DNA of 64,000 nucleotides from NCBI GenBank assembly GCA_965223855.1, contig CBDCXM010000009.1, positions 1,344,001 through 1,408,000 on the forward strand, in the 5' to 3' direction. The translations under genes and the position numbers were made by a program. This DNA is from Candidatus Multivoradales bacterium. Lineage in GTDB: Bacteria > Acidobacteriota > Thermoanaerobaculia > Multivoradales > JAHEKO01. The notes under the pieces were generated by a model, which did no database searches, was not told where the DNA came from, and saw nothing but the letters and a program-made list of their open reading frames with translations. Below, piece after piece: positions 43,912 through 58,779 of this stretch. Positions within the stretch are counted from its first letter, which is position 1; each line of letters starts with the position of its first letter.

Positions 43912-45384
43912 TTACGTAACGATTGTGTCAATAGGGAGAGTGGCGGCGGCTGTCGTGCCTCCCCCGGCGCGGGGCTCGAGCGCGAGCGCGCCGCCGTGGA
44001 GGTCGAGGATTCGCTGCGCCAGCGGCAGGCCGAGACCCACTCCATCGGGCCGCGAGGTCGCGAACGGCTCGAACCACTCTTCGAGTCGGACCGGGTCGAT
44101 CCCCGCGCCCCGATCGGCGACCTCGATCACGAGTTCGCGCTCACGCAGGAAGAGCCGAAGTACGAGGGCCTCACCCGAACCGGCCTCCTCGTGCGCCGCG
44201 GCGCCGTTGCGCACCAGATTGCGTAGGGCGCGCTCGAGGAGCTGTCGATCGGCTCGCAGCTCCAGATCTGGCGGCAGCTCGTTGTCGAGCTCTACCGGCA
44301 CCGCGAGGGCCGGGTCCCGCTGGAGGTGGCGGGCGAGGTCGGCGGCCCGGAAGGTCTCCAGACGCGCCTCGGGGCGGGCGAACGACAGGAAGTCCTCGAC
44401 GACCCGCTGGAGGTGGTCCGTCTCGCCTCGGATCTCTCCCAGATAGTCGTGGACCGTGTCCTCGTCGGGCTGCCGCTCGATGAGGGTCAGATAGCCGCGC
44501 AGCGCGGCGAGCGCGTTGCGCAGCTCGTGGGCGAGGCCGGCCGACATCCGACCGAGCTGAGCGAGACTCGAGGCGCGCTGCTCCCGGTTCGACCGTTCCC
44601 GGTCTTCCGTCAGGTCCGCGAAGAGGGCGAGCCGGCCGCGTCGGGTACCGTCGTCACGGTGGAGCTCATGGGTCGTGAGGCCGAGCGTCAGGGTCGATCC
44701 GTCGGTGCGCTCGAGGGAGAGTTCTCGCCTGGAGACACGGTCTTCGGGTGAGGCTTCGGCGTTGCCGAGCAACTCGACGAGCGCGGGGTGTCGGGCGCCG
44801 TACTCTGAGAGCGCAGGGCGGGCGTCCTCCGGTGGCTCCAGTCCGAGGAGCTCGCAACCGACCGGGTTGAGAGCCAGCACGCGATCGCTGTCGTCGAGCA
44901 GAAGGACACCGCTGTCGAGGCTCGAACCGAGGGTGCGCTGGAGCGCGGCGATCTCCCGCTCCTCGTCGAGATTCGAATCGTCGTGGTGACTGCCGGCCAG
45001 CGCTTCGAGCGCCCGTTCGAAGGTCGAGACGAGATAGTCGACGTCGTCGCGCGCCTCGCTCTCGTCGATCGCCGCCACATCCCTCGCCTGGCCGAGCAGC
45101 GCCTCGAAGGGCGAGATGAGATGCCGGAGGTAGAAGAGCACGAAGATCACCAGCGCGACGCCCACCGCCAGAACGACCCAGGTGAGGCGCTCGGCGATCA
45201 CCCTCTGGCGGGCGACCTCTCTATCGATCTCCGCGCTCCCGGCACCTCCGAGAGAGCCGAGAGACTCCAGCGAAGAACGGTAGGCGGAGAGGGTGGCGAT
45301 CGAGAGCACCACCAGGACGAGCAGCACGAGCGGTAGCAGAATCGAAGCCTCGCGCACGAGGCCGATCCTGGGCCGCCGCTTCAC
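43912..45384 (-). CDS. PAS sensor histidine kinase (PilS-like)
   Basis: 2 TM, PAS, AHELRNAL H-box, NLVRN, DRGAGI, GVGLGL; GTG start overlaps the pilD stop. Confidence 0.9.
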   Translation of the reverse strand: MKRRPRIGLVREASILLPLVLLVLVVLSIATLSAYRSSLESLGSLGGAGSAEIDREVARQRVIAERLTWVVLAVGVALVIFVLFYLRHLISPFEALLGQARDVAAIDESEARDDVDYLVSTFERALEALAGSHHDDSNLDEEREIAALQRTLGSSLDSGVLLLDDSDRVLALNPVGCELLGLEPPEDARPALSEYGARHPALVELLGNAEASPEDRVSRRELSLERTDGSTLTLGLTTHELHRDDGTRRGRLALFADLTEDRERSNREQRASSLAQLGRMSAGLAHELRNALAALRGYLTLIERQPDEDTVHDYLGEIRGETDHLQRVVEDFLSFARPEARLETFRAADLARHLQRDPALAVPVELDNELPPDLELRADRQLLERALRNLVRNGAAAHEEAGSGEALVLRLFLRERELVIEVADRGAGIDPVRLEEWFEPFATSRPDGVGLGLPLAQRILDLHGGALALEPRAGGGTTAAATLPIDTIVT

Positions 45385-46166
45385 AACAGGCCCAGGTAGA
45401 CGTCGACCGGGCGGTTGCGGGTAAACAGAGCGATCAGCGCGCCGGCGGCGAGGAAGGTACCGAATGGGAGCTTGGAGGCGAGACCGAGACGCCGGGTGGC
45501 GATCATCGCCAGACCGTAGACAGCACCGATGAGGGCGCCGCAGAAGAGCGCCATCGCGACTCCCTTCCAGCCGAGAAAGGCCCCGATCATCGCCAGCAGA
45601 TTGACGTCGCCCAGCCCCATCCCCTCTTCCTCCCGCAGCCAGTACCAGGCATTGATCAGGAGGATCAGCCCTCCGGCGCCGACCAGCGTCCCGATCACGG
45701 CCTCGAGGAAGGTCACTCCGGGAATCCACGGCTGGAGAGCGAGCCCGGCGGCGATGCCGGGGAAGGTCAGCCGGTCGGGCAGCAGGAAGTGCTCGAGGTC
45801 GATGAGGGCGAGGGCGAGCAGCAACGACCCGAACAGGGCCGCGGCGAGTCCCTCGAGCCCGAAGCCGAAGGTCCTCGCGCAGCTCCAGAACAGGAGCGCC
45901 GTCGCCGCCTCGACCGCCGGGTAGCGCCAGCCGATCGTCGCCCCGCAATGGCGGCATCTTCCGCGCAGCCAGAGGAAGCTCAGCATCGGCAGGTTGTCGA
46001 ACCAGGCGATCGCCGCGCCGCACCCCGGGCAGGCCGATCGCGGGCGGATGGTCGAGACCTGCCGCGGCACGCGGTGGATCACGACGTTGAGGTAGCTGCC
46101 GGCGATCAGGCCGAGAGCGACGGCGAGAAACTCGGCCGTCAGCGGGGACAGCGAGAGGGCGGACAC
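45381..46166 (-). CDS. pilD: prepilin peptidase/N-methyltransferase
   Basis: GSYLNVVIHRVP, SACPGC, RGRCRHC, IDLEH..LPD, MGLGD, LPFGTFL. Confidence 0.97.
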   Translation of the reverse strand: MSALSLSPLTAEFLAVALGLIAGSYLNVVIHRVPRQVSTIRPRSACPGCGAAIAWFDNLPMLSFLWLRGRCRHCGATIGWRYPAVEAATALLFWSCARTFGFGLEGLAAALFGSLLLALALIDLEHFLLPDRLTFPGIAAGLALQPWIPGVTFLEAVIGTLVGAGGLILLINAWYWLREEEGMGLGDVNLLAMIGAFLGWKGVAMALFCGALIGAVYGLAMIATRRLGLASKLPFGTFLAAGALIALFTRNRPVDVYLGLL

Positions 46167-46175
46167 CGGGGGATT

Positions 46176-46541
46176 CTAACCGTCGTCCGCTTCCTCGCGG
46201 CCGCACGGTTCGGCCAGCGGGACGAGGTCGAAGAGATCACCGAGCACCCCGCGCCACTCGGTGTCGAGACCGGCGCTCCAGCGCCGGTCGCGCAGCTCCA
46301 CCTCGGCACTCGCGTCGGCCGGGACCACGTTGGGAGCCTCCGATCCCCGGAGCTCGACGATCCTGAAGTCGTCTCCGTGCCGTCGCTCGAGCGCGGCGAG
46401 GCCGCGGACCAGCCGATGAGGAGCCGAATGCGGGTTGGGGCTGGCACTGTGTCCCGAGCGACCCTCGGCGACAACCTCGATCATCGTGCAGGTACCCGAA
46501 GGCGCCGCCGCGAGGGCGAGCAACAGAGCCGCGACCAACAT
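46176..46541 (-). CDS. exported stand-alone M20 peptidase dimerization domain
   Basis: Hydrophobic signal; IEVVAEGRSGHSASP..SAPHRL..GLAAL and RGSEAPNVVPADASAEVELR; own -10 TAGACT 6 nt before the ATG. Confidence 0.75.
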   Translation of the reverse strand: MLVAALLLALAAAPSGTCTMIEVVAEGRSGHSASPNPHSAPHRLVRGLAALERRHGDDFRIVELRGSEAPNVVPADASAEVELRDRRWSAGLDTEWRGVLGDLFDLVPLAEPCGREEADDG

Positions 46542-46587
46542 GGCGTGAGTCTAGCCCGAACGTCTCCCGGTCCCTTCTTCGGACAAC

Positions 46588-46619
46588 AAAAAACGGCGCC
46601 GCCCCGAAGAGCGGCGCCG
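46588..46619 (-). terminator. rho-independent terminator of the major pilin
   Basis: CGGCGCCGC-N8-GCGGCGCCG followed by TTTTTT on the minus strand. Confidence 0.88.
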
Positions 46620-46675
46620 CCAGAAGAGAAGACGTTGCTGTCAGGTCTTCTGTGCCTCGAGGCTCAGCTACCGAA

Positions 46676-47218
46676 CTAGTTGCCGACCTGGGCGCCCGCC
46701 GGGTAGGTGACGAAGAAACCGTCCGCCCAGGCGATGTCGTTGTCGTAGATCGTCGCGATGAACGGGCCGACGGTGTACGACTCGGCGTCGAACGCGCCGT
46801 CACGACCGGTGCTGCGGATACCCATGACCTTCGAGCCGAGAAGCTGGGAGCCCGACGCATAGGCGTACGAGTTGCCCCAACCGTCGAGAGGCGGCACGGT
46901 CTGGATGTAGAAGAAGGTATCCGACTGGAAGAGCGTGTTCTGCAGGTTGTTGGCACCGATGTCGGTGTTGTTGAAGTCCCAGTCGAAGGTCGAGGCGCCG
47001 GCGGAAGCGGCACCGACCTGATCGGTCAGCCAGGAAAACCAGGCGCCACCGACGTTGCGCATGTCACCGACGGTCCGCTTCTGCTTGGCCTTCTGAAGGG
47101 CGTCGAGAAGGTTCGGGATCAGGACCGCGGCGATGATGCCGATGATCGCGACGACGATCAGCAGCTCGATGAGGGTGAAACCCTTCTGGCCGCGGCGACG
47201 ATTGAGAAAATTCATCAT
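46676..47218 (-). CDS. pilA: major type IV pilin (GspG-like C-terminal domain)
   Basis: G|FTLIELLIVVAIIGII..IP; own sigma54 promoter, strong RBS and terminator. Confidence 0.88.
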   Translation of the reverse strand: MMNFLNRRRGQKGFTLIELLIVVAIIGIIAAVLIPNLLDALQKAKQKRTVGDMRNVGGAWFSWLTDQVGAASAGASTFDWDFNNTDIGANNLQNTLFQSDTFFYIQTVPPLDGWGNSYAYASGSQLLGSKVMGIRSTGRDGAFDAESYTVGPFIATIYDNDIAWADGFFVTYPAGAQVGN

Positions 47219-47290
47219 GTGTTGCTTCCTCCCTGGGGGAATTGGATGTCTTTCGACGGATGCGGCCGAGCCGCGTGGACCCGCTTACCA

Positions 47291-47306
47291 TGCAGGGAGC
47301 ATGCCG
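47291..47306 (-). promoter_or_regulatory. sigma54 promoter of the pilin
   Basis: CGGCATGCTCCCTGCA (GG-N10-GC); IHF-like TTTCAGGGACTTG at 47324-47336. Confidence 0.7.
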
Positions 47307-47405
47307 AGAGCAAACACCCCTTTTTTCAGGGACTTGCGGGATTGGGCACGGCTCGGGTTGTCAGGGATCGTCAGCCCGCAGTGACGAATATTGTCGGTCG
47401 CCGCG

Positions 47406-48773
47406 TCAACCGGCCATTCGACGGACGGTCTCGACGTAGAGGTCGATACCCTTGACGAAGCCGGGCAGGTTGATCCTCTCGTTGGGGTTGTCGGCGCGGA
47501 ACGACTCGGTGTTGAAGATCACGAATGGAGAGAAACCGTAGGCGGCCACTCCGGCGTCGCGGAAGAAACGGGCGTCGGTGGCGCTCCAGGCGAGGAAGAA
47601 GGGGCTGACGACGGTACCCGGGTACTCGCGGAGGATCTGCCGCTCGAGCAGGCGGTAGTCCGGGTGGTCGATCGGGCTCCCCCGGATCGATCCCACGGGA
47701 GGGCCGAACTCGACTTCGATCCCGGCCCGCATCCACTCCGGTAGCAGTCGGTCCAGGGTCTCTCGGTAGGGGCTCCCGGGCAGCAGGTTGAGGAACATCC
47801 TCATGCGGAAGGTGCCGTCCTCGAGCTCCTCTACCGGGAAGGTGGCGATCTCGTCGATCACGAAGGAGCGCAGATAGGGCTGCGCCCGGCGGAAGCGGCG
47901 AGGCTCGACGGAGCCGTCCGCGATCCGGTCGAGGAGTTCTGTGAAGATCTCCTGGTCGCGAGTCTTCGAGTAGTCCCCCAGAAACCAGGCGACCTCGTCC
48001 ACGATGCGGGGGACGCTGTAGCGGAGCTGGTGCACCCTGATGGTGCGGGAGAGCTCCTCTAGCAAGTCGCGCCGATCGGCGCAGGCGGAGCCCTCCGCGT
48101 AGCGCTTCTGTGCCGCCTCGATCCCCCAGAACTTGATCTCCGACGTCGTGTTCGGCTCGATGATGCCGCCCTCGGTCAGCACGGTATCGAAGCGGGAGAC
48201 GAGCTCGGGATGGCGTTGGAGGACCCACCGGGTCCCGAGATGGCTGCCGATTTCCTCGCCGGACGTTGCGAGGAAGATTACGGACCGCTCGGGGCGGCGT
48301 CGTGACGCGGCCAATTGCCGCATCGTCTCGAGCTGGGCTATGGCGAGGCTCTTCATGTCGAAGACTCCTCTTCCGTAGAGGAAGGGCGGGTCGATGACCC
48401 CCTCGAACGGCGGATGCTTCCATCCCAGGTCGGTCGGCGCCTCGAACACGTCGATGTGGTGGTGAAGGACGATCGCCTCGCGTCGCTGCCCCTCGATGAC
48501 CGCCCACAGGTTCGCGTGGCCATTTCCGAGCTCCTCCAGCTCCGGTTCGAGGCCTGTTTTCCGGAGCTCTTCGGCGAGGAAGCGTGCTCCGTCGATCTCT
48601 TTCTCGCTGGTATCGATGCGCACGTACTGCTGCAGCAGCCGGACCGCGGGTTCTCCTTCCCAGTCCGCCACGGTGCGCCCTGCGTCCTCTTTCACCTCGA
48701 TCGGACGGTGAAGGTGGGCGACCATCGCCAGCACGGCAGCTACAGAGAGGGCTACCGATGCATAGAGCGCCAC
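47406..48773 (-). CDS. membrane-anchored M20/M25/M40 metallo-hydrolase (divergent)
   Basis: HHHIDV, GRGVFDMKS, GEEIG, LTEGG, ATDARFFR; final His ligand replaced (ADNPNERI). Confidence 0.85.
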   Translation of the reverse strand: MALYASVALSVAAVLAMVAHLHRPIEVKEDAGRTVADWEGEPAVRLLQQYVRIDTSEKEIDGARFLAEELRKTGLEPELEELGNGHANLWAVIEGQRREAIVLHHHIDVFEAPTDLGWKHPPFEGVIDPPFLYGRGVFDMKSLAIAQLETMRQLAASRRRPERSVIFLATSGEEIGSHLGTRWVLQRHPELVSRFDTVLTEGGIIEPNTTSEIKFWGIEAAQKRYAEGSACADRRDLLEELSRTIRVHQLRYSVPRIVDEVAWFLGDYSKTRDQEIFTELLDRIADGSVEPRRFRRAQPYLRSFVIDEIATFPVEELEDGTFRMRMFLNLLPGSPYRETLDRLLPEWMRAGIEVEFGPPVGSIRGSPIDHPDYRLLERQILREYPGTVVSPFFLAWSATDARFFRDAGVAAYGFSPFVIFNTESFRADNPNERINLPGFVKGIDLYVETVRRMAG

Positions 48774-48874
48774 CCGTGCGCTTCTGCGTGCACGGCGCTC
48801 GAAGGGGGATCTTGGTGCCGGGGGTTGTCGGGCCAGGGGAGTCTCTCCGGGTGTCGGCGGGTTAGGCTAGCCCC

Positions 48875-50431
48875 ATGTCCAAGAGCTCCGGGGCCGAGGG
48901 CGCCGCGATCGTCGCGATCGCGGCCGGTATCGTATACGCCGCCTTCGCTCGGCACGTCGTGGGCTTCACAGGCCCACCGCTCGACGACGGCTTCATCCAC
49001 CTGCAGTTCGCGCGCAACCTCGCGGCGGGCTCGGGAATGAGCTACTTCGGCGGTGAGCTGGTCGGCGGTTCGACCGCGCCTCTGTGGACTCTGCTCCTCG
49101 CCGTGCTGTCGGGGCTGCCCGGTCCCGCGCTTGTTTGGGCACAGGCGTTCGGATTGCTGTGCTTCGCCGCGTCGGTCTTCCAGACGGTCGGACTGGCTCG
49201 CGACCTCGGAGTCGATCCACTTCTGGCCCGTTTCGCCGGCTACCTCGCGGCGACGACAGGGCCGCTGGTCTGGGCTTCGGTCTCGGGGCTGGAGATCCCG
49301 CTCTTCGCCCTTCTGAGCCTGGCCGCGATCCGACGCCATCTGCACGACCGGCAGCGCAGCGACGGCGTTGCGTTCTCGCTGCCGCTGTTCGCGCTGGCGG
49401 TCCTCGCGAGGCCGGAGGGGGCGTTGCTGCTGGCGCTCGCAGTGATCGATCGATTGGCGGTGCAGCGCTTCCGACCGCGGGCGGCGGTGCGCTCCCTCGG
49501 CCCGGGGCTCCTCCTCGCCGGCCTGCTGCTGGCGCCGGTCGCGTTGTTCCACCTGCTGTCGGGCGGCAGCCTGCTGCCGACGACGTTCGCTGCCAAGGGT
49601 GCCGGGTGGCACCGCCTGACTCCGGACCTGCGGTACCTCCACACCGTGATCGGTATCTTCCTGCGGGCGCAGCCGGTCGCGGCGCTCTTTGCGATCGGCG
49701 GTCTGCTGGAACTGCTGAGGCGTGACTCCATCGTGCCGGATGCAGGCCGGGCCGCGCTTCCGGCGCTGTGGTGCGTCGGGTTGCCCTTCGTCTACTCGCT
49801 GCTCTCGGCACCCGGTCCGGCGATGGTCGGCAACTTCGGCCGCTACTACTATCCGCTGCTGCCGCTGGTCGTCGTCTTCGGCTGTCTAGGTCTCACCCCG
49901 CTGTTGCGGCGTCTCAGGGTTGCGCAGGGATGGGCCGCCTCGCGCTGGGTGGTTCTGCTCCTCGCCCTCCTGGTGGCCGCTCCGGCGCTCCATCGGCTCG
50001 GGCTGACGGCGGGTCGATTCGCTCAGAACGTCCGCAATGTCCACGACGGCGATGTCGCTGCCGCGCGCTGGCTGGGCGAGCGTCTGCCTCCGGAGGCGAC
50101 TCTGGCCGTCAACGACGTCGGTGCTCTGCAGTACCTCCTGCCGCAGAACCGGGTGCTCGACCTCGCCGGTCTCGTCACGCCGCGGCTCACCGCATACACT
50201 CGCCTCGCGCTCGAGTCGGGGCGGCCGAGGAACGACGGAGTGACGGCCTATCTCGCCGAGGCGCGGCCCGACTATCTGGTGATCTTCCCGGAGTGGTTCC
50301 CGATGCTGATCTCGAGTGACGTCCGCTATCGCCCGGTTCGCGAGTTCGCGGTGCCGGGGAACATCACGCTCGGCGGCAGTCGGGTCGTGGTGTTCCGCAC
50401 ACCCTGGACCGACGTCGAGCTCGAGCCGTGA
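48875..50431 (+). CDS. polytopic GT-C fold glycosyltransferase
   Basis: DDGFIHLQFARNLAAG, GSTAPLW, SGLE, RPEG, many TM helices, DVGAL, DLAGLV. Confidence 0.75.
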   Translation: MSKSSGAEGAAIVAIAAGIVYAAFARHVVGFTGPPLDDGFIHLQFARNLAAGSGMSYFGGELVGGSTAPLWTLLLAVLSGLPGPALVWAQAFGLLCFAASVFQTVGLARDLGVDPLLARFAGYLAATTGPLVWASVSGLEIPLFALLSLAAIRRHLHDRQRSDGVAFSLPLFALAVLARPEGALLLALAVIDRLAVQRFRPRAAVRSLGPGLLLAGLLLAPVALFHLLSGGSLLPTTFAAKGAGWHRLTPDLRYLHTVIGIFLRAQPVAALFAIGGLLELLRRDSIVPDAGRAALPALWCVGLPFVYSLLSAPGPAMVGNFGRYYYPLLPLVVVFGCLGLTPLLRRLRVAQGWAASRWVVLLLALLVAAPALHRLGLTAGRFAQNVRNVHDGDVAAARWLGERLPPEATLAVNDVGALQYLLPQNRVLDLAGLVTPRLTAYTRLALESGRPRNDGVTAYLAEARPDYLVIFPEWFPMLISSDVRYRPVREFAVPGNITLGGSRVVVFRTPWTDVELEP

Positions 50432-51531
50432 GCCCGTCGGTCCCGGCCTTCGACCTCGCCCGCGCGGCCCGACGCATCGAGCCGCGCTTGAGGGCGCGGT
50501 GGGCCGATCTGCTGGAGCGAACGGCCTTCGTCGGCGGTGAGGAGGTCACCGGCTTCGAGGAGGAGTTCCGGGCGTTTCTCGAAGTCGAAGGGTGCGTCGC
50601 CGTCGCCAACGGCACCGACGCGCTTGTGCTGGCACTCCAGGCGCTCGAGCTCGAGCCGGGCGACGAGGTGATCGTCCCGGCATTCACCTTCGTCGCCACG
50701 GCCGCCTCGGTCGTGCAGGCAGGCGGCACTCCGGTCTTCGCCGATGTCGATCCGGGAACGCTCAATCTGGATTTCACCGACGCCGAGCGACGGATCTCGC
50801 CGCGTACCGTCGGCGTGATCGGGGTCCACCTCTACGGCTGTCCGTTCGATGTCGAGGCGGCTGGAGCGCTGTGCGAACGCCACGGACTGTGGCTGGTGGA
50901 GGACGCCGCGCAGGCACAGGGTGCTCGCTGGCGCGGGCGTCGGGTGGGCGGTTTCGGCCGACTGGCGACCTGGAGCTTCTACCCGTCGAAGAACCTCGGT
51001 GCCTTCGGCGACGCAGGTGCCGTGACCGGTAACGACCCGGCCCTCCTCGACAGGGTGCGCCTGCTCGCGAACCACGGAGCGACCGGCCGCTATCACCATG
51101 AGCTTGTCGGCGCGAATTCTCGACTCGACGCTCTCCAGGCGGCGGTGCTTCGTTGCCGATTGGAAGGGCTCGACGCCGACAACGCCGAGCGCCGCTCGGT
51201 GGCGGCGCGCTACCGCCGCGCGCTGGACCGGTCGGAGGGCATCTGCTGGCTGCCGGAGCCCGAGGGGTGCGAGAGCGTCGTGCACCAGTTCACGGTCATG
51301 ACCGAGCGTCGGGACGAGCTGCAGGCGTTCCTGGCCGAGCGGGGGATCGGCTCCTCGGTTCACTATCCGACGCCGTTGCACCGTCAGCCCGCGTTCTCGC
51401 ACCTCGGCGCGGTCCCATCGCTGCCGGTCGCCGAGCGGGCCGCTGAGCGGGTTCTGTGCCTGCCGATGTTCCCCGAGTTGACCGACGAAGAGGTCGATCT
51501 GGTCGCCTCGGCGCTCGTCGACTTCTGCTAG
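50428..51531 (+). CDS. DegT/DnrJ/EryC1/StrS sugar aminotransferase
   Basis: NGTDAL, VHLYG, EDAAQA, SFYPSKNLGAFGDAG, NSRLD. Confidence 0.96.
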   Translation: MSPSVPAFDLARAARRIEPRLRARWADLLERTAFVGGEEVTGFEEEFRAFLEVEGCVAVANGTDALVLALQALELEPGDEVIVPAFTFVATAASVVQAGGTPVFADVDPGTLNLDFTDAERRISPRTVGVIGVHLYGCPFDVEAAGALCERHGLWLVEDAAQAQGARWRGRRVGGFGRLATWSFYPSKNLGAFGDAGAVTGNDPALLDRVRLLANHGATGRYHHELVGANSRLDALQAAVLRCRLEGLDADNAERRSVAARYRRALDRSEGICWLPEPEGCESVVHQFTVMTERRDELQAFLAERGIGSSVHYPTPLHRQPAFSHLGAVPSLPVAERAAERVLCLPMFPELTDEEVDLVASALVDFC

Positions 51532-53036
51532 TCCGCGCTCGGATCGAGCAGCTCGAGGTCGAAGTCCTGGTCGCCGACCGCGATCAGGTGCTCGGCGGGT
51601 GCGAAGGCGTCGCGCAGCTCGATCGTCTCGCCTTCGTCGTATTGCCAGTCGGTCAGGCCCGCAGCGATGTCGGTCATCGGTACGACGAGGCCCCTCCCGG
51701 AGAAGGTCCCGGCGCGTGCCTCGAGAGCGTCGCGCGAAGGCTGCTCGCGAGCGGTGGCGAGGACCAGCACGTTGCCGGCGCCCCGAACCGCAACGACCAG
51801 AGTCGTTCGGAAGCTGCGTCGCAGCGTGTGAAGGAGCGAGCGCGAGAACGGGTCGTGAAGACCGGCGGCGAGGTTCACGGCGAGAGTGCCTCCCTCGGTG
51901 AGCCGGCGGCTCGCCGAAGCGAAGAACTCCCGGGTCGTCATGTGAAACGGCACCGAGCGGCCGATGTAGGCGTCGACGTAGATCACGTCCCAGCTGCGCT
52001 CACTCTCGTCGACGAACCGCCGCCCGTCGGCGATGTGAACCCGCTGCCTCGGGTCGGGCCGCCAGAAGCCGTAGCGCTCGGCGACCTCGGGCACGGCGGG
52101 ATCGATCTCCACGAAGTCGACCTCGAGAGCCGGGGCGAGCTTGTGCCAGGTCTTCGCCACGAGGCCGCCCCCCATGCCGAGCACGAGGGCGTGATCGGGT
52201 GCCGGCGTGGTCAGGAACACCGCCGCCGCGTAGTGTCCGTAGCGGGAGGCGATCTCGCCGCTGTCGAGCCAGTAGGCCGATTGGGTGACGCTGTCGCTGC
52301 GCATGTAGCGCACGCCTGCCTGGTCGAGGATCTCGATGGTCTGATACGCGGTCCCGCGGACGGCGACGACCTCGTCGGGGCGTCCCGGGTCGGCCTCGGG
52401 GAGGGCGAACGCCGAGAGCCCGATGGTCAGCGCCAGTAGGCTTTCCGCCACGCCGCGCCCGCGCCCGACCAGAGCGAGCGCCGCCGTCGCTCCGGTGCCC
52501 GCGGTCAGCGTCGACAGGATGGCGGGCACGGGAAAGCCGGGGATGGCGACGAAGGTGCACAGCAGCGTGCCGGCCAACGAGCCCGCTGTCGAAGTGGCGT
52601 AGATGCGGCCGCTGATATTTCCGAGGCGTTCGAGGTCGTCGGCCGCTAGGCGGATGACGAACGGGGAGATCATGCCGAACACCAGGCCGGGCACCGTGAA
52701 GAGGACGAGGCACGCCAGGAGGGTGCCGCCAGGGGTCGCGCCCGTAGCCTCGGCCAGCTCGCGGCTGACGCCGGCGCTCCACATCCGCAGCGCGAGCATC
52801 CAGATGGCGGCGAGGAGGATCAGTCCGCCGAGCAGGCGTCGATCGGGGCGACGGTCGGCGAGCCGCCCCCCCCAGAAGTAGCCGATCGACATCGCGGCGA
52901 GGAACACCGAGATGATGGAGCCCCAGACGTAGACGCTGTTGCCGAAGTGCGGCGCCAGGATCCGGCTGGCGAGAATCTCCAGGGCCATCAGAAGCGCCCC
53001 GCACAGGCCGGCGACGACCAGCAGCCGGAGCTTCAT
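51528..53036 (-). CDS. fused MFS-like membrane / spermidine synthase-like SAM-binding protein
   Basis: MALEI..SRILAPHFG..YVW, STAGSLAG, VLGMGGG, VEIDP, DGRRF, IYVDAY, HMTTREF. Confidence 0.9.
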   Translation of the reverse strand: MKLRLLVVAGLCGALLMALEILASRILAPHFGNSVYVWGSIISVFLAAMSIGYFWGGRLADRRPDRRLLGGLILLAAIWMLALRMWSAGVSRELAEATGATPGGTLLACLVLFTVPGLVFGMISPFVIRLAADDLERLGNISGRIYATSTAGSLAGTLLCTFVAIPGFPVPAILSTLTAGTGATAALALVGRGRGVAESLLALTIGLSAFALPEADPGRPDEVVAVRGTAYQTIEILDQAGVRYMRSDSVTQSAYWLDSGEIASRYGHYAAAVFLTTPAPDHALVLGMGGGLVAKTWHKLAPALEVDFVEIDPAVPEVAERYGFWRPDPRQRVHIADGRRFVDESERSWDVIYVDAYIGRSVPFHMTTREFFASASRRLTEGGTLAVNLAAGLHDPFSRSLLHTLRRSFRTTLVVAVRGAGNVLVLATAREQPSRDALEARAGTFSGRGLVVPMTDIAAGLTDWQYDEGETIELRDAFAPAEHLIAVGDQDFDLELLDPSAD

Positions 53037-53062
53037 CGTTCCCGCACCCGGGTTCGCTGCGT

Positions 53063-53115
53063 CACGGACAGCTCACTCTTCACGGACGGCCCTCACGGAC
53101 AGCCCGCACAGACAT
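53063..53115. repeat. short intergenic direct repeats CACGGAC(A/G)G x3 plus one degenerate copy
   Basis: Copies at 53063, 53081, 53094 and CACAGACAT at 53107. Confidence 0.7.
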
Positions 53116-53132
53116 CCCCGGCAGTTGAGCCC

Positions 53133-54581
53133 TCACAGGTAACCCAGCGCCCGGAGCGTTTCCTCGTCGAGCGGTTCGACGGCGCTGTCGTCGTCCAGAG
53201 CGACGGCGGCGGCATCCGCCCGGGCGACGAAGCGGTCGAGTCGCGCCCTGAGGTCGGCAACGACCTCGGGGAGAGATTCGCTCAGGTCCTCGCGGTCTCC
53301 CGGATCCGCGTCGAGGTCGAAGAGAAAGAGTCTCTCGCCTGTGAGCGTGTAGTCGTCCTCGAGAAGTACGAGCTTGTAGCCGCCATGGACGAGCGCTCGT
53401 CCGACGCATCGGGCTTCGAGATCCGCTTCGACGAGAATCTCGCGCTGGTCGAGCCCGCTCACTTCGTGCTCCGAGCGCAGCAGGCGTGCCAGCGAGATGC
53501 CGTCGAGCTCGCGGGACGGCGGGATGCCCGCCAGATCGAGCAGGGTGGGGGTCAGGTCCACCAGCGAGACCGGCTCCGCGATTGTCCGTCTCGCAGGGGA
53601 GACTTCGCGCGGCAGCTTGACGAGAAGGGGAACGTGGATCGACTCTTCGAAGAGGGTGAAGCCGTGGCGGAAACCGCCGTGCTCGAAGAGCTCCTCGCCG
53701 TGGTCGGAGGTCAGCACGACGATCGAGTCGTCCCATTCGCCGGCCTCGCGCAGCGCCTCGAAGACCGCGGCGAGCTGATCCATCGTGTAGCGCACCGCCA
53801 CCGCGTATTGTTCTCGCAGGCTGGTGATCATCTGAGGCTCCACCTGCCACCGGAACTCGAGCCGGCCCGACATGATGCGGGTCTCGATCGGCGACTGGTA
53901 GCGATACTCCCGGCTGGGCGGGCGGCCGAGGAGGGTCGAGCGGTGTTCCTGCGGGACCCGGTAGGGGCCGTGCGGGTTCATCGGCTGGAGGTAGAGGAAG
54001 AACGGCTCGTCCCTTGGGGCGATCCACTCGATCACGTCGTCGTTCATTTCCGAGATGTCGGGGTACGCCAGTACCCCGCCGTCGTAGGCGTAGAACTCCT
54101 CGAACCCCTGGTCGAAGTTGCGCTTCGGACTGACGTTGATGTTGTGCGAGTGACCGCGGGTCCGGTAGCCGCGCTCTCGTAGTATCTCGGGCAGGGTCGC
54201 GACCGACTCCGGCAGGTACTCCGCCCGTTCGGCGCGCACCTGATGACGTGTCGGTACGAGGCCGCTCAGGATTGAGGCGACGCTCGGGCGGGTCCACGAG
54301 CCTGCGGCGTAGGCCTGCTCGAAGCGCACCGCCTCGCTCATGAAGTCGGCGAGGGCCGGCGTCGTGGGGAGCGAGAACCCGTACTCGCTCAGATGGTCTG
54401 CTCGCAAGGTGTCGACGACGACGAGGACGATGTTGGGCCCGTCGAACGGGACCTCACGGGGAGTGCCCGCCCCGCACCCGGTCAGCAGTGAGGCCGCGAC
54501 GAGCAGGGTCAGGGCGGCCAATTGGCCGCGGCCCGCGGAGTTCGCCCCGCCGGCTCGCAGTCGATGTGTCGTCGGTCCCAT
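53133..54581 (-). CDS. sulfatase-like (alkaline phosphatase superfamily) lipoprotein
   Basis: Lipobox LLTGC, NIVLVVVDTLRADH, SWTRPS, PHGPY, SDHGE, LRALGY. Confidence 0.9.
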   Translation of the reverse strand: MGPTTHRLRAGGANSAGRGQLAALTLLVAASLLTGCGAGTPREVPFDGPNIVLVVVDTLRADHLSEYGFSLPTTPALADFMSEAVRFEQAYAAGSWTRPSVASILSGLVPTRHQVRAERAEYLPESVATLPEILRERGYRTRGHSHNINVSPKRNFDQGFEEFYAYDGGVLAYPDISEMNDDVIEWIAPRDEPFFLYLQPMNPHGPYRVPQEHRSTLLGRPPSREYRYQSPIETRIMSGRLEFRWQVEPQMITSLREQYAVAVRYTMDQLAAVFEALREAGEWDDSIVVLTSDHGEELFEHGGFRHGFTLFEESIHVPLLVKLPREVSPARRTIAEPVSLVDLTPTLLDLAGIPPSRELDGISLARLLRSEHEVSGLDQREILVEADLEARCVGRALVHGGYKLVLLEDDYTLTGERLFLFDLDADPGDREDLSESLPEVVADLRARLDRFVARADAAAVALDDDSAVEPLDEETLRALGYL

Positions 54582-54656
54582 CGGGCGCCAAGACTAGCCT
54601 GCTTTTTCTCACCCCCTCCCGATGCTTAGCCCGAGACCCGGCGGTAAGATCCTCGA

Positions 54657-56561
54657 ATGTCGAATGGCCCTGCGCCCGAGCCGGTCCGTGGGCCGTTCCC
54701 GATCGTCGCCGCCCACGGTGCCCTGCTGCTGGCGTTGATGACGTGGTTGCGGCTCTCCAAGGCGCGTTTCGCCGGTCTCGACCCGTCGCCCCAGGCGTGG
54801 CTGCCGCTGATGGCCGCGGACGTCGGCTTCGTGCTGCTCCTGGAAGGGGTGCTCTGGCTGGCGAGCAACGGACGAGGGTCCAGAGGTTGGTCGGCTGCGG
54901 TTCACCTCGTTCACCTTCCGATCTACCTCTTCCTCGCGATCGCTCACCAGTTCTTCGTCAACACCGGGTATCGGCTGCCGTTCGACGTAGCCGCCTACGC
55001 CGCCGGCCGCCTGGGGATGCTGCGCGACCTGCTCACGGTCACCGGAGGCGTCGGAGCGTTGCGCGATGTCGCGATCGCCGGTGGTGCGTTCCTGCTGGCC
55101 GTCGTCGCCGGGCGGGTTTGGAAGCCGCGGCCGTGGGCGGTGTCGCGGCGGCTCGTCATCGGCGCCGCGCTGGCGCTCGGTGTGGCCCTTCTGCTCTGGG
55201 CTCCGTTCCGGGATCCGGCGGTCCGGGATCTCGCCCGCAACGACGTCGTCGCGTTCGCCGGGAGCGCGCTCCATGCGGCCGAGTCCGATGTCGACCTCAG
55301 CGGCTTCATGATCGAGCCGGAAGACTTCTACAGGCGGCCGGAGGTCGGCGCAGGGCCGGCCTCTCGGCCCAACATCATCCTGCTCGTTCTCGAGTCGACC
55401 GGGGCTCAGGCTGTGGGAGCCGACTTCACAAGTGGGCCGGAGACACCTGAGCTGGCGGCCCTTGCCCTGGACTCCGTGGTCGTCGAGCAGGCGTACGGCA
55501 CGGTGTCGCACACCTCCAAGGCGCTGGTCGGCCTTCTGTGCGGGATGCTGCCGCGGCTCGAGCTGGTGATCTCCGAATCGCTCGAAGGCAATCTGCCGCT
55601 GGCCTGCCTGCCCTCGATCCTGCGGGAGAACGGCTACCGGACGGCGTTTCTCCAGACCGCCCTGGGCGAGTTCGAGAATCGCCCGGGCCTCGTGGCCAAC
55701 CTCGGCTTCGAGCACGGCGCCTATCAGGAGACGCTGACGCGCCCTCCGTTCGCCACCACCGGCTACTTCGGGCTCGACGAGTTCGCGATGCTCGAGCCCG
55801 CGGTCAGGCTCGCGACCTCATCCGGGTCGCAGCCCTTCTTTCTGACGCTTCTTACCATCACTCCCCATCACCCTTACGAGACTCCGGGAGTGCCGATGGG
55901 AGACCGCCCAAACGAAGAGCTCTACCGGGAGGCGCTCGCTCATCAGGATCGCTTCGTCGGTGCCCTGAGAGCGTCGCTGGCCGCCGGCGGAGCGCTCGAC
56001 AACACGCTCCTGATCGTCATCGGCGATCACGGCGAAGCCCACGGTGAGCACGGGCTCTACGAGCACGATGTCGTGCCGTACGAGGAGGTGGTGCACACCC
56101 CCTGGCTGCTGCACGGTCCCGAGGCGCTGATCGGCCCGCCCCGAACGCTGGACGGGCTGCGTTCGCACCTCGATCTGATGCCGACGCTGCTCGAACTGCT
56201 CGACCTCGAATGGTCCGGCACGCTTCCGGGGCAAAGCGTGCTGTCGACTCCCGGCCACGAGCGGGTGGTGACGTCGTGCTGGTATCGGAGTCACTGCCTG
56301 GGACTGCGGCGCGACGATCGCAAGGTCGTCTATTCCTTCGGGCGCCGTCCGACCGAGGTCTACGATCTGGGTGTCGATCCTTTCGAGCACACCGATCTGG
56401 CGCCGACGCTGCCGGCCGACGAGGTCGAGACGCTGGAGGCGGAGATGCTCGCCTGGAAGCTCTCGGTGGATGCCTTCTGGGCGGGGCACCCGAAGAACGA
56501 GGGGCCGCTCTACTGGTGGCGGGAGGCGTCCGGCGATTCGTCTTCTGCAGGATCCGACTGA
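54657..56561 (+). CDS. LTA synthase-like membrane sulfatase-fold phosphotransferase
   Basis: About 5 N-terminal TM, NIILLVLES, SHTSKA (Thr nucleophile position), PHHPY, GDHGE. Confidence 0.82.
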   Translation: MSNGPAPEPVRGPFPIVAAHGALLLALMTWLRLSKARFAGLDPSPQAWLPLMAADVGFVLLLEGVLWLASNGRGSRGWSAAVHLVHLPIYLFLAIAHQFFVNTGYRLPFDVAAYAAGRLGMLRDLLTVTGGVGALRDVAIAGGAFLLAVVAGRVWKPRPWAVSRRLVIGAALALGVALLLWAPFRDPAVRDLARNDVVAFAGSALHAAESDVDLSGFMIEPEDFYRRPEVGAGPASRPNIILLVLESTGAQAVGADFTSGPETPELAALALDSVVVEQAYGTVSHTSKALVGLLCGMLPRLELVISESLEGNLPLACLPSILRENGYRTAFLQTALGEFENRPGLVANLGFEHGAYQETLTRPPFATTGYFGLDEFAMLEPAVRLATSSGSQPFFLTLLTITPHHPYETPGVPMGDRPNEELYREALAHQDRFVGALRASLAAGGALDNTLLIVIGDHGEAHGEHGLYEHDVVPYEEVVHTPWLLHGPEALIGPPRTLDGLRSHLDLMPTLLELLDLEWSGTLPGQSVLSTPGHERVVTSCWYRSHCLGLRRDDRKVVYSFGRRPTEVYDLGVDPFEHTDLAPTLPADEVETLEAEMLAWKLSVDAFWAGHPKNEGPLYWWREASGDSSSAGSD

Positions 56562-57931
56562 GTTCCGACCCAGCCGGCGACGATCTTCGTCATCCGCTCG
56601 ACCCCCTCGTCGAAGGCGGCGACCGCGATCCTCTCGTTGGCGGCGTGGACGGTCGTCGTGTAGCGCCCGCTCAGTCGGAAGGGTGAGAAGCCGTAGGCGG
56701 GGAACCCTCGCTCCCGGAAGTAGCGGGAGTCGGTGACGCCACCGATCATCTGCTCGACGATCGGCGCTTCGGTGCTCAAGACCTGCTCGAGCAGGGCGAC
56801 GACCTCGTGGTCGAACGGGCTCGCTGCGGCGGGTGGAGCGGCCAGGAGGGTCTCGATCGCTACTTCGGGCCCGAGGGTCTGGGCGATCGCGGTGCGCTTG
56901 GCGTCGGTGTCCGACCCCGGCAACAGACGGGCGTCGATCGACGCCCAGGCGCTGCCGTCCTCTTCCGTCTCGAGTTGATTGACCTGAAGGGAATCGATGA
57001 AGTAGTTCTCCATCCCGGGCATGAGTCGGGTGGTCGGCCCGGTCGGTGCGATGTGGCTATCCAGGTCGAGGAAGACCGAGCGCCGGCCGCGCCGGTAGAA
57101 CGGGGCGAGGCCGGCGAAGACCCGTCTCGCCGGCGCGGTGACCCGCCATTCGATCGGTTCCGCGAGCAGGCGATCGAGTGCGGTGACCAGAGTGCGCGCG
57201 TCAGGAGCCTCGATCCTGAGCCACAGCGGAAGTTTCTGGGCCGTCTCGATGCCCCACCACTGGATGCGCTCCTCCGACACCCGGTTGAACCCCCCCTCGT
57301 TCAGCACCGCTGCCGTGTCGGCGAAGAGCTCGGGTCGCTCCCTCAGCCAGCGGCCGACGCCGATCTCGCCTCCGGTCTCCTCTCCTGCCGCCGCGAACAG
57401 CGCGACCGCGCGGTGTCGTCGTCGGCCCGATCTTTCTACTTCGAGCATCGCGGAGAGCTGTGCGATGCCGAGCCCCTTGGCGTCGATCGCCCCACGCCCC
57501 CACAACTCGCCATCGACGTGGGCGCCCGAGAAGGGCGCCTGCGCCCACCCGTCCCCGGCCGGCGTGACGTCGATGTGGTGAAGCAGCAGCAGAGTCGGGC
57601 CGCTCTCGGCGCCCGCCGAAGCGGGAAGCCTCGCGTACCAGCTCGGCCGACCGTCTCCGGCGTCGAGCCGTGTGGTCTCGATCGCGCTGCCGGCGACGAA
57701 GCTCTCGAGGAGATCGACGGCGGCGCTCTCTCCCCGGACCGCTGCCGTCTCTCCGGTTCGTACGGCCTGACCCTCGTCGCCGTGCCCGTCTGTCGTGTCG
57801 ATCCTGAGATAGCTCTGCAGCCGTTGGGCGGCAGCCGACAGTCCTTCGTCGTCCCCCGAAGGCGGGGTGGTGCAGCCGGCGGTCGCGAACGCCAGGGCGA
57901 CGGCGACGGTCAGCCGAGATAGACGATCCAC
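56510..57931 (-). CDS. M20/M25/M40 metallo-hydrolase lipoprotein
   Basis: Lipobox ATAGC, HHIDV, GRGAIDAKG, GEETG, LNEGG, TDSRYFR, HAANERI. Confidence 0.9.
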   Translation of the reverse strand: MDRLSRLTVAVALAFATAGCTTPPSGDDEGLSAAAQRLQSYLRIDTTDGHGDEGQAVRTGETAAVRGESAAVDLLESFVAGSAIETTRLDAGDGRPSWYARLPASAGAESGPTLLLLHHIDVTPAGDGWAQAPFSGAHVDGELWGRGAIDAKGLGIAQLSAMLEVERSGRRRHRAVALFAAAGEETGGEIGVGRWLRERPELFADTAAVLNEGGFNRVSEERIQWWGIETAQKLPLWLRIEAPDARTLVTALDRLLAEPIEWRVTAPARRVFAGLAPFYRRGRRSVFLDLDSHIAPTGPTTRLMPGMENYFIDSLQVNQLETEEDGSAWASIDARLLPGSDTDAKRTAIAQTLGPEVAIETLLAAPPAAASPFDHEVVALLEQVLSTEAPIVEQMIGGVTDSRYFRERGFPAYGFSPFRLSGRYTTTVHAANERIAVAAFDEGVERMTKIVAGWVGTQSDPAEDESPDASRHQ

Positions 57932-58779
57932 AAGACCACTCCTCCCCAGGCGGCGATGTTGAGCAGGAAGGGGAGGTCACGCAGGAGCTGCTCGGTCGGG
58001 TTGCGCTGTGCGGTCTTCTGGTAGATCAGGAAGAGGTAGCGGAAGATCCCGAAGAGCACGAACGGCACCGTGTACACGAGCCGACTGCCGAAGCGGTCGA
58101 CGTTCTCGGGCGCCACGGCGTAGAGCGCGTAGGAGAGCACGCTCGATGCGGTCACCACATTGACCATCTGATCGAGGAACGGAGCGCTGTAGCGCTCGAG
58201 CACGTCACGGGCGTCACCCGCCCGGTCGGACAGCAGCATGATCTCGTGGCGCCTCTTGGAGAGCGCCAGGAGCAGCGAAACGAAGATCGTGCACAGGAGC
58301 AGCCATGCGGAGACCTCGACGCCGGCCGCCGAGCCGCCGCCGAAGACGCGCAGCACGAATCCCAGGCTGATGATGAGGACGTCGAGGATTACGACCCGCT
58401 TGAGGCCGAGCGAGTAGAGGAGATTGAGGGTGAAGTAGAGCGCGACGACGGTGACGACGGTGCCGCCGAGCCAGGCTGCGAGAGTCAGCGCGGCGCCGAC
58501 GAGGACGAGCGCCGCGACCATGCCGACCGCCGGAGATACAATGCCGGAAGCGAACGGCCGATGGCGTTTCAGTGGGTGCCGGCGGTCTTCCTCGCGGTCG
58601 CGGATGTCGTTGAAGAGGTAGACGGCGCTCGACGCGAGGCAGAACGCGACGAAGGCGAGGAGCGTCCTCGCCTGGGCGTCACGGTCGCCGAGCGAGCCGG
58701 CGAAGACGAGTGGCGCCAGCACGAAGACGTTCTTGACCCACTGATGAGGCCGCATGGCGGCCCACAGACCCTTCAGCAT
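57910..58779 (-). CDS. UbiA family decaprenyl-phosphate phosphoribosyltransferase
   Basis: RPHQWVKN, YLFND..D...DRRHPLKRHRPFASG, LYSLGLK, KRRHE, GIFRYL; start 58779 or 58788. Confidence 0.92.
   Translation of the reverse strand: MLKGLWAAMRPHQWVKNVFVLAPLVFAGSLGDRDAQARTLLAFVAFCLASSAVYLFNDIRDREEDRRHPLKRHRPFASGIVSPAVGMVAALVLVGAALTLAAWLGGTVVTVVALYFTLNLLYSLGLKRVVILDVLIISLGFVLRVFGGGSAAGVEVSAWLLLCTIFVSLLLALSKRRHEIMLLSDRAGDARDVLERYSAPFLDQMVNVVTASSVLSYALYAVAPENVDRFGSRLVYTVPFVLFGIFRYLFLIYQKTAQRNPTEQLLRDLPFLLNIAAWGGVVLWIVYLG

Follow-up and report, generated by a model that had tools for sequence, protein, structure and literature searches.

In a 64,000-nucleotide stretch of the genome of a Candidatus Multivoradales bacterium (contig CBDCXM010000009.1, positions 1,344,001 to 1,408,000; hereafter the window), a minus-strand gene at 46176-46541 encodes a 121-residue protein that amounts to the dimerization domain, or lid, of an M20-family hydrolase and nothing more. 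We propose, with a probability of about 0.6, that this solo lid is one part of a naturally split M20 enzyme, in which the small, putatively exported subunit contributes His31 and Asn71 to a second protein, M20-3 (56510-57931), a probable catalytic lipoprotein whose own lid has lost the two corresponding loops. Throughout, M20-1 denotes the full-length M20 at 47406-48773, and M20-2 denotes the loop-bearing M20 that most relatives carry in the slot of the lid gene. For the solo lid and the M20s alike, ‘exported’ is to be read as putatively exported, from N-terminal hydrophobic segments recognized by eye. Comparisons draw on a family set of 45 genomes, among which the window's own genome is G000, G001–G004 belong to the same genus and G012 to another; this M20 clan has a maximum of two or three members per genome, M20-1 and M20-2.

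The original prediction described the product of 46176-46541 as an exported protein consisting of an M20 dimerization domain alone, and Pfam, AlphaFold2 and Foldseek comparisons agree on that domain content. Residues 22-85 match the Pfam family M20_dimer (PF07687) at 27.3 bits (cut-off 21), and three relatives (P0012, P0011 and P0022) match it at 27.1, 23.1 and 22.2 bits. There is no other Pfam match, Peptidase_M20 included, and the usual architecture, in which the lid is inserted in a Peptidase_M20 domain, is not found. An AlphaFold2 model built from six orthologues (predicted local distance difference test score, pLDDT, 84.9; predicted template-modelling score 0.75) adopts the ferredoxin-like lid fold, with elements in the order beta-alpha-beta-beta-alpha-beta (strands 18-26, 59-65, 76-84 and 104-109; helices 40-58 and 90-100). 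When this model is compared with the PDB by Foldseek, all 34 displayed matches are M20-family enzymes, including DapE, ArgE, allantoate amidohydrolase and CPG2, with a best E-value of ~2e-6 and 103 matches at E <= 0.001; a phmmer search of the lid against PDB sequences gave chance matches only (E 0.8-1.4). The open frame totals 124 amino acids, lies 134 bp from the upstream pilin gene and 10 nt from the downstream peptidase gene, and has a GC content by codon position (0.79/0.52/0.82) like that of neighboring real genes, in a window of 66-69% GC whose minus strand holds most of the real genes. The coding-frame pattern of codon-position GC recurs in six of six high-GC lid copies, and the hydrophobic leader at the N-terminus of the solo lid is kept in every full-length copy.

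M20 hydrolases such as DapE, ArgE, the aminoacylases, the carnosinases and CPG2 are textbook cases in which a dimer interface completes the active site, and Asn263 of the aminoacylase Acy1 also has a role. Removal of the lid inactivates DapE and the His206Ala variant of Acy1 is nearly inactive (PMC4012986), and in closed DapE the oxyanion hole is formed by Zn1 and His194 of the opposite chain (PMC10815964). The two nearby full-length M20s were originally said to lack both of the loops concerned, and alignments confirm this: M20-3 and M20-1 match Peptidase_M20 (PF01546) at 86.9 and 80.6 bits, respectively, and neither matches M20_dimer at E <= 1. Where 30 loop-bearing homologues read xGRxGHxSxxxxxSAxH, M20-3 has a gap of 13 residues at about residue 243 (57205-57203), and a second gap of ~5 residues falls at xxINVxP, at about residue 325 (56959-56957). 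M20-3 retains intact metal ligands (H119, D150, E185, E212 and H429) and the catalytic E184, and these six residues together with D121 are invariant in 31 sequences. Ligands were assigned by the positions of their motifs relative to CPG2, whose numbering is also listed in Table 1 of PMC5082436. The AlphaFold2 model of M20-3 (pLDDT 90.6) resembles DapE, carnosinases and Sso-CP2 and has an intact lid scaffold in which a two-residue turn replaces the His loop. PDB sequence matches of both M20s span the N-terminal catalytic half, apart from a weak C-terminal match of M20-3 to 1q7l_B; none of them reaches either M20's lid, and for this reason they could not show the lid deletions.

The N-terminus of M20-3 (57840-57931) is a leader ending in cysteine, as are those of the four (of five) loop-less orthologues whose N-termini were inspected, in G001–G004 (L043–L046); the five endings read ATAGC, GLAC, VPGC, LLAC and LSTC, and the leader looks like a lipoprotein signal. 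The five loop-bearing M20-2 proteins inspected (from G020, G018, G009, G028 and G036) have no cysteine leader.

Gene order in relatives ties the solo lid to a full-length enzyme. In G020 and G018, a gene for a full-length exported M20-2 of 460-480 amino acids fills the slot between the pilin and prepilin peptidase genes, and this M20-2 carries both loops (GRGGHGSxLNLHxAPHRLVR and xxNV(T/V)P). The same slot holds a solo lid in the window and in loci L002, L004, L005, L082, L113 and L115, with an APHRL(I/V)R motif shared with M20-2; the loci that show both flanks (L002, L004, L005 and L082) have the order M20-1, pilin, small open reading frame, prepilin peptidase, kinase. Short orthologous frames of 124-227 amino acids, 37-52% identical, occur in G001–G004 and G012, the 227-residue frame of G002 being a stop-free upstream extension of a protein recorded at 133 amino acids (P0002). 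G021 carries a solo lid too, and the lid frame is open in seven of seven genomes.

A search of the 45 family genomes with a profile of 21 lids separates them into classes: a short lid frame is the sole match in seven (G000–G004, G012 and G021), 29 have only long-frame, loop-bearing matches, nine have none, and no genome has both kinds. Genomes marked unpublished count in tallies only: G005 is one of the 29 long-frame genomes, with its locus L028 appearing solely in a BLAST table, and G044, G135 and G164 entered the tally of genomes across the taxonomic class; the sequences of all four are absent from alignments and trees. In the solo-lid genomes, the top M20-2 homologue is 56510-57931 or its orthologue, located 3-19 kb off the old slot or on another contig. 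We aligned 36 M20-2/3 sequences, six from solo-lid genomes and 30 from genomes without a solo lid. All six of the former lack the 13 residues at the His loop and ~5 at the Asn loop, and all 30 of the latter keep GH and N. The co-occurrence of solo lid and loop-less enzyme, put forward at the outset as a check on trans complementation, is found in each of the six solo-lid genomes with a full-length copy. G021, which is 61% complete, has the solo lid, and no full-length M20-3 copy was found in it.

Other lineages have lost M20-2 altogether. G022 (L078; 99% complete), G010 (L079) and G029 (L081) keep M20-1 and have a gap of 115-167 bp between pilin and peptidase genes (165 bp in G022, where the M20-1, pilin and prepilin peptidase genes follow one another), and neither a lid nor M20-2 was found genome-wide at the thresholds used. 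Where M20-2 has disappeared altogether, no lid survives either; the lid is therefore kept neither for the benefit of the peptidase gene or M20-1 nor as a mere leader of the peptidase operon. Judged by gene content, lid retention tracks the loop-less M20-3.

Solo lids form a diverse family that is conserved in a small number of uncultured Acidobacteria. An exhaustive search of 1.84 billion representative proteins with a hidden Markov model of six lid orthologues gave 241 matches at E <= 0.001 and 25 at E <= 1e-10, of which ~22 are short (90-170 amino acids); a word search restricted to lid homologues of comparable size returned the query alone when started from the single sequence, and found seven when started from a profile. 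Among 301 genomes across the class, the window's own frame is the sole short-frame lid match, barring one contig-end fragment. The short lids split into a high-GC group with two cysteines (group A) and a lower-GC group with none (group B). One lower-GC lid lies on a 3.8-kb contig of ‘MAG: Thermoanaerobaculia bacterium’, a metagenome-assembled genome, in the order lid, prepilin peptidase, kinase; this genome is taken to be G021 because the match is the same in contig number, coordinates and E-value. A metagenome contig of 1.5 kb carries pilin, lid and peptidase. Both group-B contigs keep the slot, and they are too short to reach any M20-3. All 21 solo lids fall on one side of a branch (99) in the lid tree, which does not show the parent M20-2 lineage.

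The other solo lids share just 29-44% identity with the window's lid, and against this background six positions (G27, H31, H42, L44, L48 and N71) are invariant in all 21. These include His31 (46451-46449), His42 (46418-46416) and Asn71 (46331-46329). Cys18 (46490-46488) and Cys113 (46205-46203) form a candidate disulfide. Fifteen of the 16 group-A lids have the pair and none of the five group-B lids does, and in the high-GC group one conserved cysteine sits just ahead of the first strand and the other past the last strand. An inserted lid has its two ends side by side, so a natural reading of the pair is a disulfide that would staple the excised domain. The first conserved cysteine was also considered as a lipobox cysteine and rejected, as the residues that precede it (SGT, GLS, QES and ATE) do not fit the lipobox pattern and both cysteines are gained or lost together.

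A metagenomic protein of 764 amino acids, P0018, has a lid-like domain at residues 646-761 (E 1e-15 to the lid profile), C-terminal to a GDSL-like acylhydrolase and tetratricopeptide repeats; it is either a true fusion, hinting at acyl-ester chemistry, or a gene-call read-through.

A predicted complex brings the two proteins together in the geometry expected of M20 subunits. With residues 31-473 of M20-3 (a 31-row alignment) and residues 17-121 of the lid (a 21-row alignment) as inputs, three runs scored 0.82, 0.84 and 0.82, against 0.01 for the best of three controls; for comparison, 58 of 80 solved complexes attain the score mark, as do 2 of 110 mismatched pairs, counts that are approximate because our own alignments were used. 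The runs share at least 85% of contacts, with a partner pLDDT of at least 81. On the lid side, the predicted interface comprises residues 29-36 (with His31), 39-52 (helix 1) and 60-79 (with Asn71); on the M20-3 side, it comprises lid residues 233-256 and 306-335 and active-site residues 123-124, 185, 396-399 and 428-430. In this placement, the lid would contact the metal ligands E185 and H429. The controls were passed, and in this prediction, which may echo solved M20 homodimers, the lid loops would touch residues of the M20-3 metal site.

Most of this interface is lid helix against lid helix and strand against strand, as it would be if the solo lid bound the lid of M20-3 or M20-1 without any catalytic contribution, acting as a cap, a chaperone, a regulator that blocks or replaces homodimerization, or an anchor to an envelope component. 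Such a role would also suit a gene whose transcription unit, probably shared with the prepilin peptidase and histidine kinase genes, is distinct from that of M20-3, and the lid-like domain on the acylhydrolase-repeat protein P0018 hints at other partners. A pure cap, however, would have no use for His31 and Asn71. Neither residue varies across 21 diverse lids, although most other positions drift, and the loops lost by M20-3 are exactly those that the solo lid retains. We regard a non-catalytic lid as improbable, if the least improbable of the rival accounts.

The adjacent M20-1 is another conceivable recipient, alone or along with M20-3. The lid and M20-1 genes are neighbors wherever a solo-lid locus extends far enough to tell, the ancestral arrangement had M20-1 beside a loop-bearing M20-2, and M20-1 itself has neither loop. 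This absence is general, however: M20-1 is without His and Asn loops in 31 of 31 orthologues (the window's and 30 others), and G022, G010 and G029, in which neither a lid nor M20-2 turned up at the thresholds used, still carry it. In addition, although the HxD, D, EE and E motifs of the window's M20-1 are present by eye, its last histidine metal ligand, the fifth, is replaced in all 31 by D, A, S, G, R or N (aspartate being the commonest and the residue in the window), so that M20-1 is perhaps not a standard two-metal enzyme. It could work with a single metal or be a paralogue without catalytic activity, and because it is loop-less throughout and kept where no loop donor was found, it is probably not a lid-dependent partner; we consider service to M20-1 very unlikely. 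The original prediction had the small protein complementing one or both enzymes in trans. The M20-3 half of that claim gains support from co-occurrence, the invariance of His31 and Asn71 and the predicted complex, whereas the M20-1 half is not supported: loop-less M20-1 homologues, named at the outset as a refuting condition, occur in genomes where no solo lid was found. A conserved cysteine in the first lid strand was seen in M20-1 orthologues (loci L014–L042, L080 and L081).

Several points weigh against a split enzyme of lid and M20-3. First, the complex score may reflect likeness to solved M20 homodimers; since such structures exist, the result speaks to likeness of interface and not to binding. 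Second, M20-1 persists without loops where no donor was found, so M20-3 might do so too. Third, the co-occurrence amounts to roughly a single evolutionary event, because G000–G004 and G012 form one clade (Shimodaira–Hasegawa approximate likelihood-ratio test, SH-aLRT, 95 and 99), and G021, given its incompleteness and the missing M20-3, gives no independent replicate. Finally, the lid evolves fast (orthologues are 26-52% identical, versus 49-60% for M20-1), its pairwise ratios of nonsynonymous to synonymous substitution rates (dN/dS) are 0.2-1.1 with saturated dS (0.7-2.7) and give no clear sign of purifying selection, and open reading frames of 120 codons easily arise by chance at 68% GC.

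These last features are what would be expected if the lid were a functionless, decaying remnant of M20-2 and the loop loss of M20-3 were unrelated, reflecting a changed substrate or mechanism or an inactive enzyme; moreover, no obvious ribosome-binding site is seen by eye within 15 nt upstream of the window's copy. Against decay, the frame has stayed open in every genome that has it, ~22 short relatives are called as proteins in metagenome collections, and the codon-position GC of the high-GC copies is that of coding sequence. The hydrophobic leader, the group-specific cysteine pair and the functional His and Asn have all been preserved. Both catalytic halves are cleanly gone, leaving a compact domain that is modelled with confidence, and lineages that lost M20-2 function retain no remnant at all. 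Decay thus seems to us a poor explanation, about as unlikely as a role in M20-1.

For the split enzyme itself, we picture the following sequence. An ancestral exported M20-2, dimerizing through its lid, would have been split in one lineage of Thermoanaerobaculia. The old locus would have kept only the lid, as a free 12-kDa exported protein with the His and Asn loops, while a second full-length copy, M20-3, would have kept its metal site and lid scaffold, with both loops trimmed to tight turns. The solo lid would bind the M20-3 lid in the M20 subunit–subunit geometry and bring His31, and probably also Asn71, into the active site of M20-3. The outcome would be an obligate 1:1 heteromer with one active site, replacing a homodimer with two. 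The order of events, in which a second copy arises and both copies then degenerate in complementary ways, is our inference. The six loop-less M20-3 sequences form one clade (SH-aLRT 99), which is placed with weak support (82-86) beside the M20-2 proteins of G036, G033, G028, G040 and G030, all from other families of the order, and not beside those of its own family; identities are 47-50% to the former versus 43-46% to the latter. The second copy may therefore have been acquired by transfer, which we offer as a lead, not a finding. A bolder version of this scheme holds that complementary degeneration within one fold, by copying (possibly transfer) followed by losses, made a catalytic lipoprotein dependent on a 12-kDa ‘active-site donor’ in an obligate heteromer, and that the supply of this donor, transcribed with prepilin peptidase and kinase and not with the enzyme, could set the activity of an envelope enzyme. 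We hold this version tentatively, at somewhat less than even odds.

The genes around the two proteins lie largely on the minus strand. A UbiA-family prenyltransferase gene (57910-58788, minus) overlaps the start of M20-3 (minus) by 22 nt at its 3' end, and because of this overlap the two are likely co-transcribed. Between M20-3 and M20-1, genes on both strands encode two sulfatase-family proteins, a spermidine-synthase-like membrane protein, a DegT aminotransferase and one membrane protein of no assigned family. M20-1 (minus), with an N-terminal hydrophobic anchor, is followed by a gene for a type IV pilin or pseudopilin-like protein (46676-47218, minus; N_methyl motif, weak T2SSG match), which sits between M20-1 and the lid slot in every relative inspected. 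A terminator-like hairpin (46592-46621, minus; 13 pairs and a T tail, from a consensus scan only) lies 3' of the pilin gene and suggests that the lid gene opens a new transcription unit with the prepilin peptidase gene. The latter (45381-46166, minus; A24_N_bact and Peptidase_A24) starts 10 nt past the lid stop codon and is followed, in every relative inspected, by a sensor histidine kinase gene (43912-45336 in the window, minus; HisKA and HATPase_c). An open frame of 764 amino acids (43912-46206, minus) that covers the kinase gene and, out of frame, the peptidase gene is a high-GC artefact, with the kinase proper running from about 45336. Large multi-pass membrane proteins encoded at 48875-50431 and 58754-61162 (both plus) have no Pfam match at E <= 1e-4, and M20-2 of G018 (L007) is followed by a protein resembling them. 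Alongside the DegT, UbiA and sulfatase/LtaS-like genes, these membrane proteins suggest an envelope glycoconjugate locus, and the neighboring genes suggest that the enzyme is concerned with envelope glycan or pilus chemistry. The switchable, cell-surface and acyl-transferase character first proposed for the enzyme is likewise a suggestion from the gene neighborhood.

The lid and M20-3 have parallels among known M20 systems, although each differs in the way the lid is supplied. Dimers of Acy1, DapE, ArgE and the carnosinases share the fold of both parts and the G-H-x-S and N-V-x-P type loops; in the Acy1/DapE type, however, identical full-length chains exchange lids mutually, whereas here the loop-bearing lid is a separate 121-residue chain and the lid of the catalytic chain is loop-less. 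PepV-type monomeric dipeptidases, in which an internal duplication of the lid brings the His in cis, also supply the ‘partner’ His without a homodimer, but within one chain rather than from a second gene; PepV (1lfw) turned up here only as a sequence match to the catalytic half. The p-aminobenzoyl-glutamate hydrolase AbgA/AbgB of Escherichia coli, an alpha2beta2 enzyme whose two co-purifying M20-type subunits are joined via the lid region (PMC5082436), is likewise a heteromer of two different M20-type subunits. Its subunits are full-length (AbgB has 481 amino acids) and cytoplasmic, with no complementary loop loss described in the available part of that paper, whereas one partner here is 121 amino acids long and has no catalytic domain.

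The original prediction knew of no described example of this arrangement, and our literature search likewise turned up neither a paper describing a free-standing M20 lid subunit nor a study of short M20_dimer-only proteins among open-licence papers and preprints, a coverage that falls short of proof of absence. The ESM Atlas has clusters of M20_dimer-only proteins of 90-143 amino acids under the automatic name ‘peptidase dimerisation domain-containing protein’; the commonest source is Acidobacteriota for one cluster and Pseudomonadota for another. These clusters are tied to the solo lid by feature scores of 0.90-0.91 only, their names are automatic and some may be gene fragments; free lid domains may also occur outside this lineage.

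There are several implications. At the level of annotation, short lids are now left unnamed or automatically labelled as deacetylase-like (JGI labels two lid relatives ‘acetylornithine deacetylase/succinyl-diaminopimelate desuccinylase-like protein’), and loop-less M20s taken alone would be predicted inactive or misassigned; recognizing the two as possible partners corrects this. If the split enzyme is real, it would offer a natural test of the trans-completed M20 active site, with donor loops and receiving site on separate genes. It would also mean that a lid domain by itself can be a folded, working protein, a property of use in engineering M20 enzymes that are switched by an added small subunit. 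More broadly, the solo lid and M20-3 would then provide a compact case of an obligate heteromer evolving from a homomer through complementary loss.

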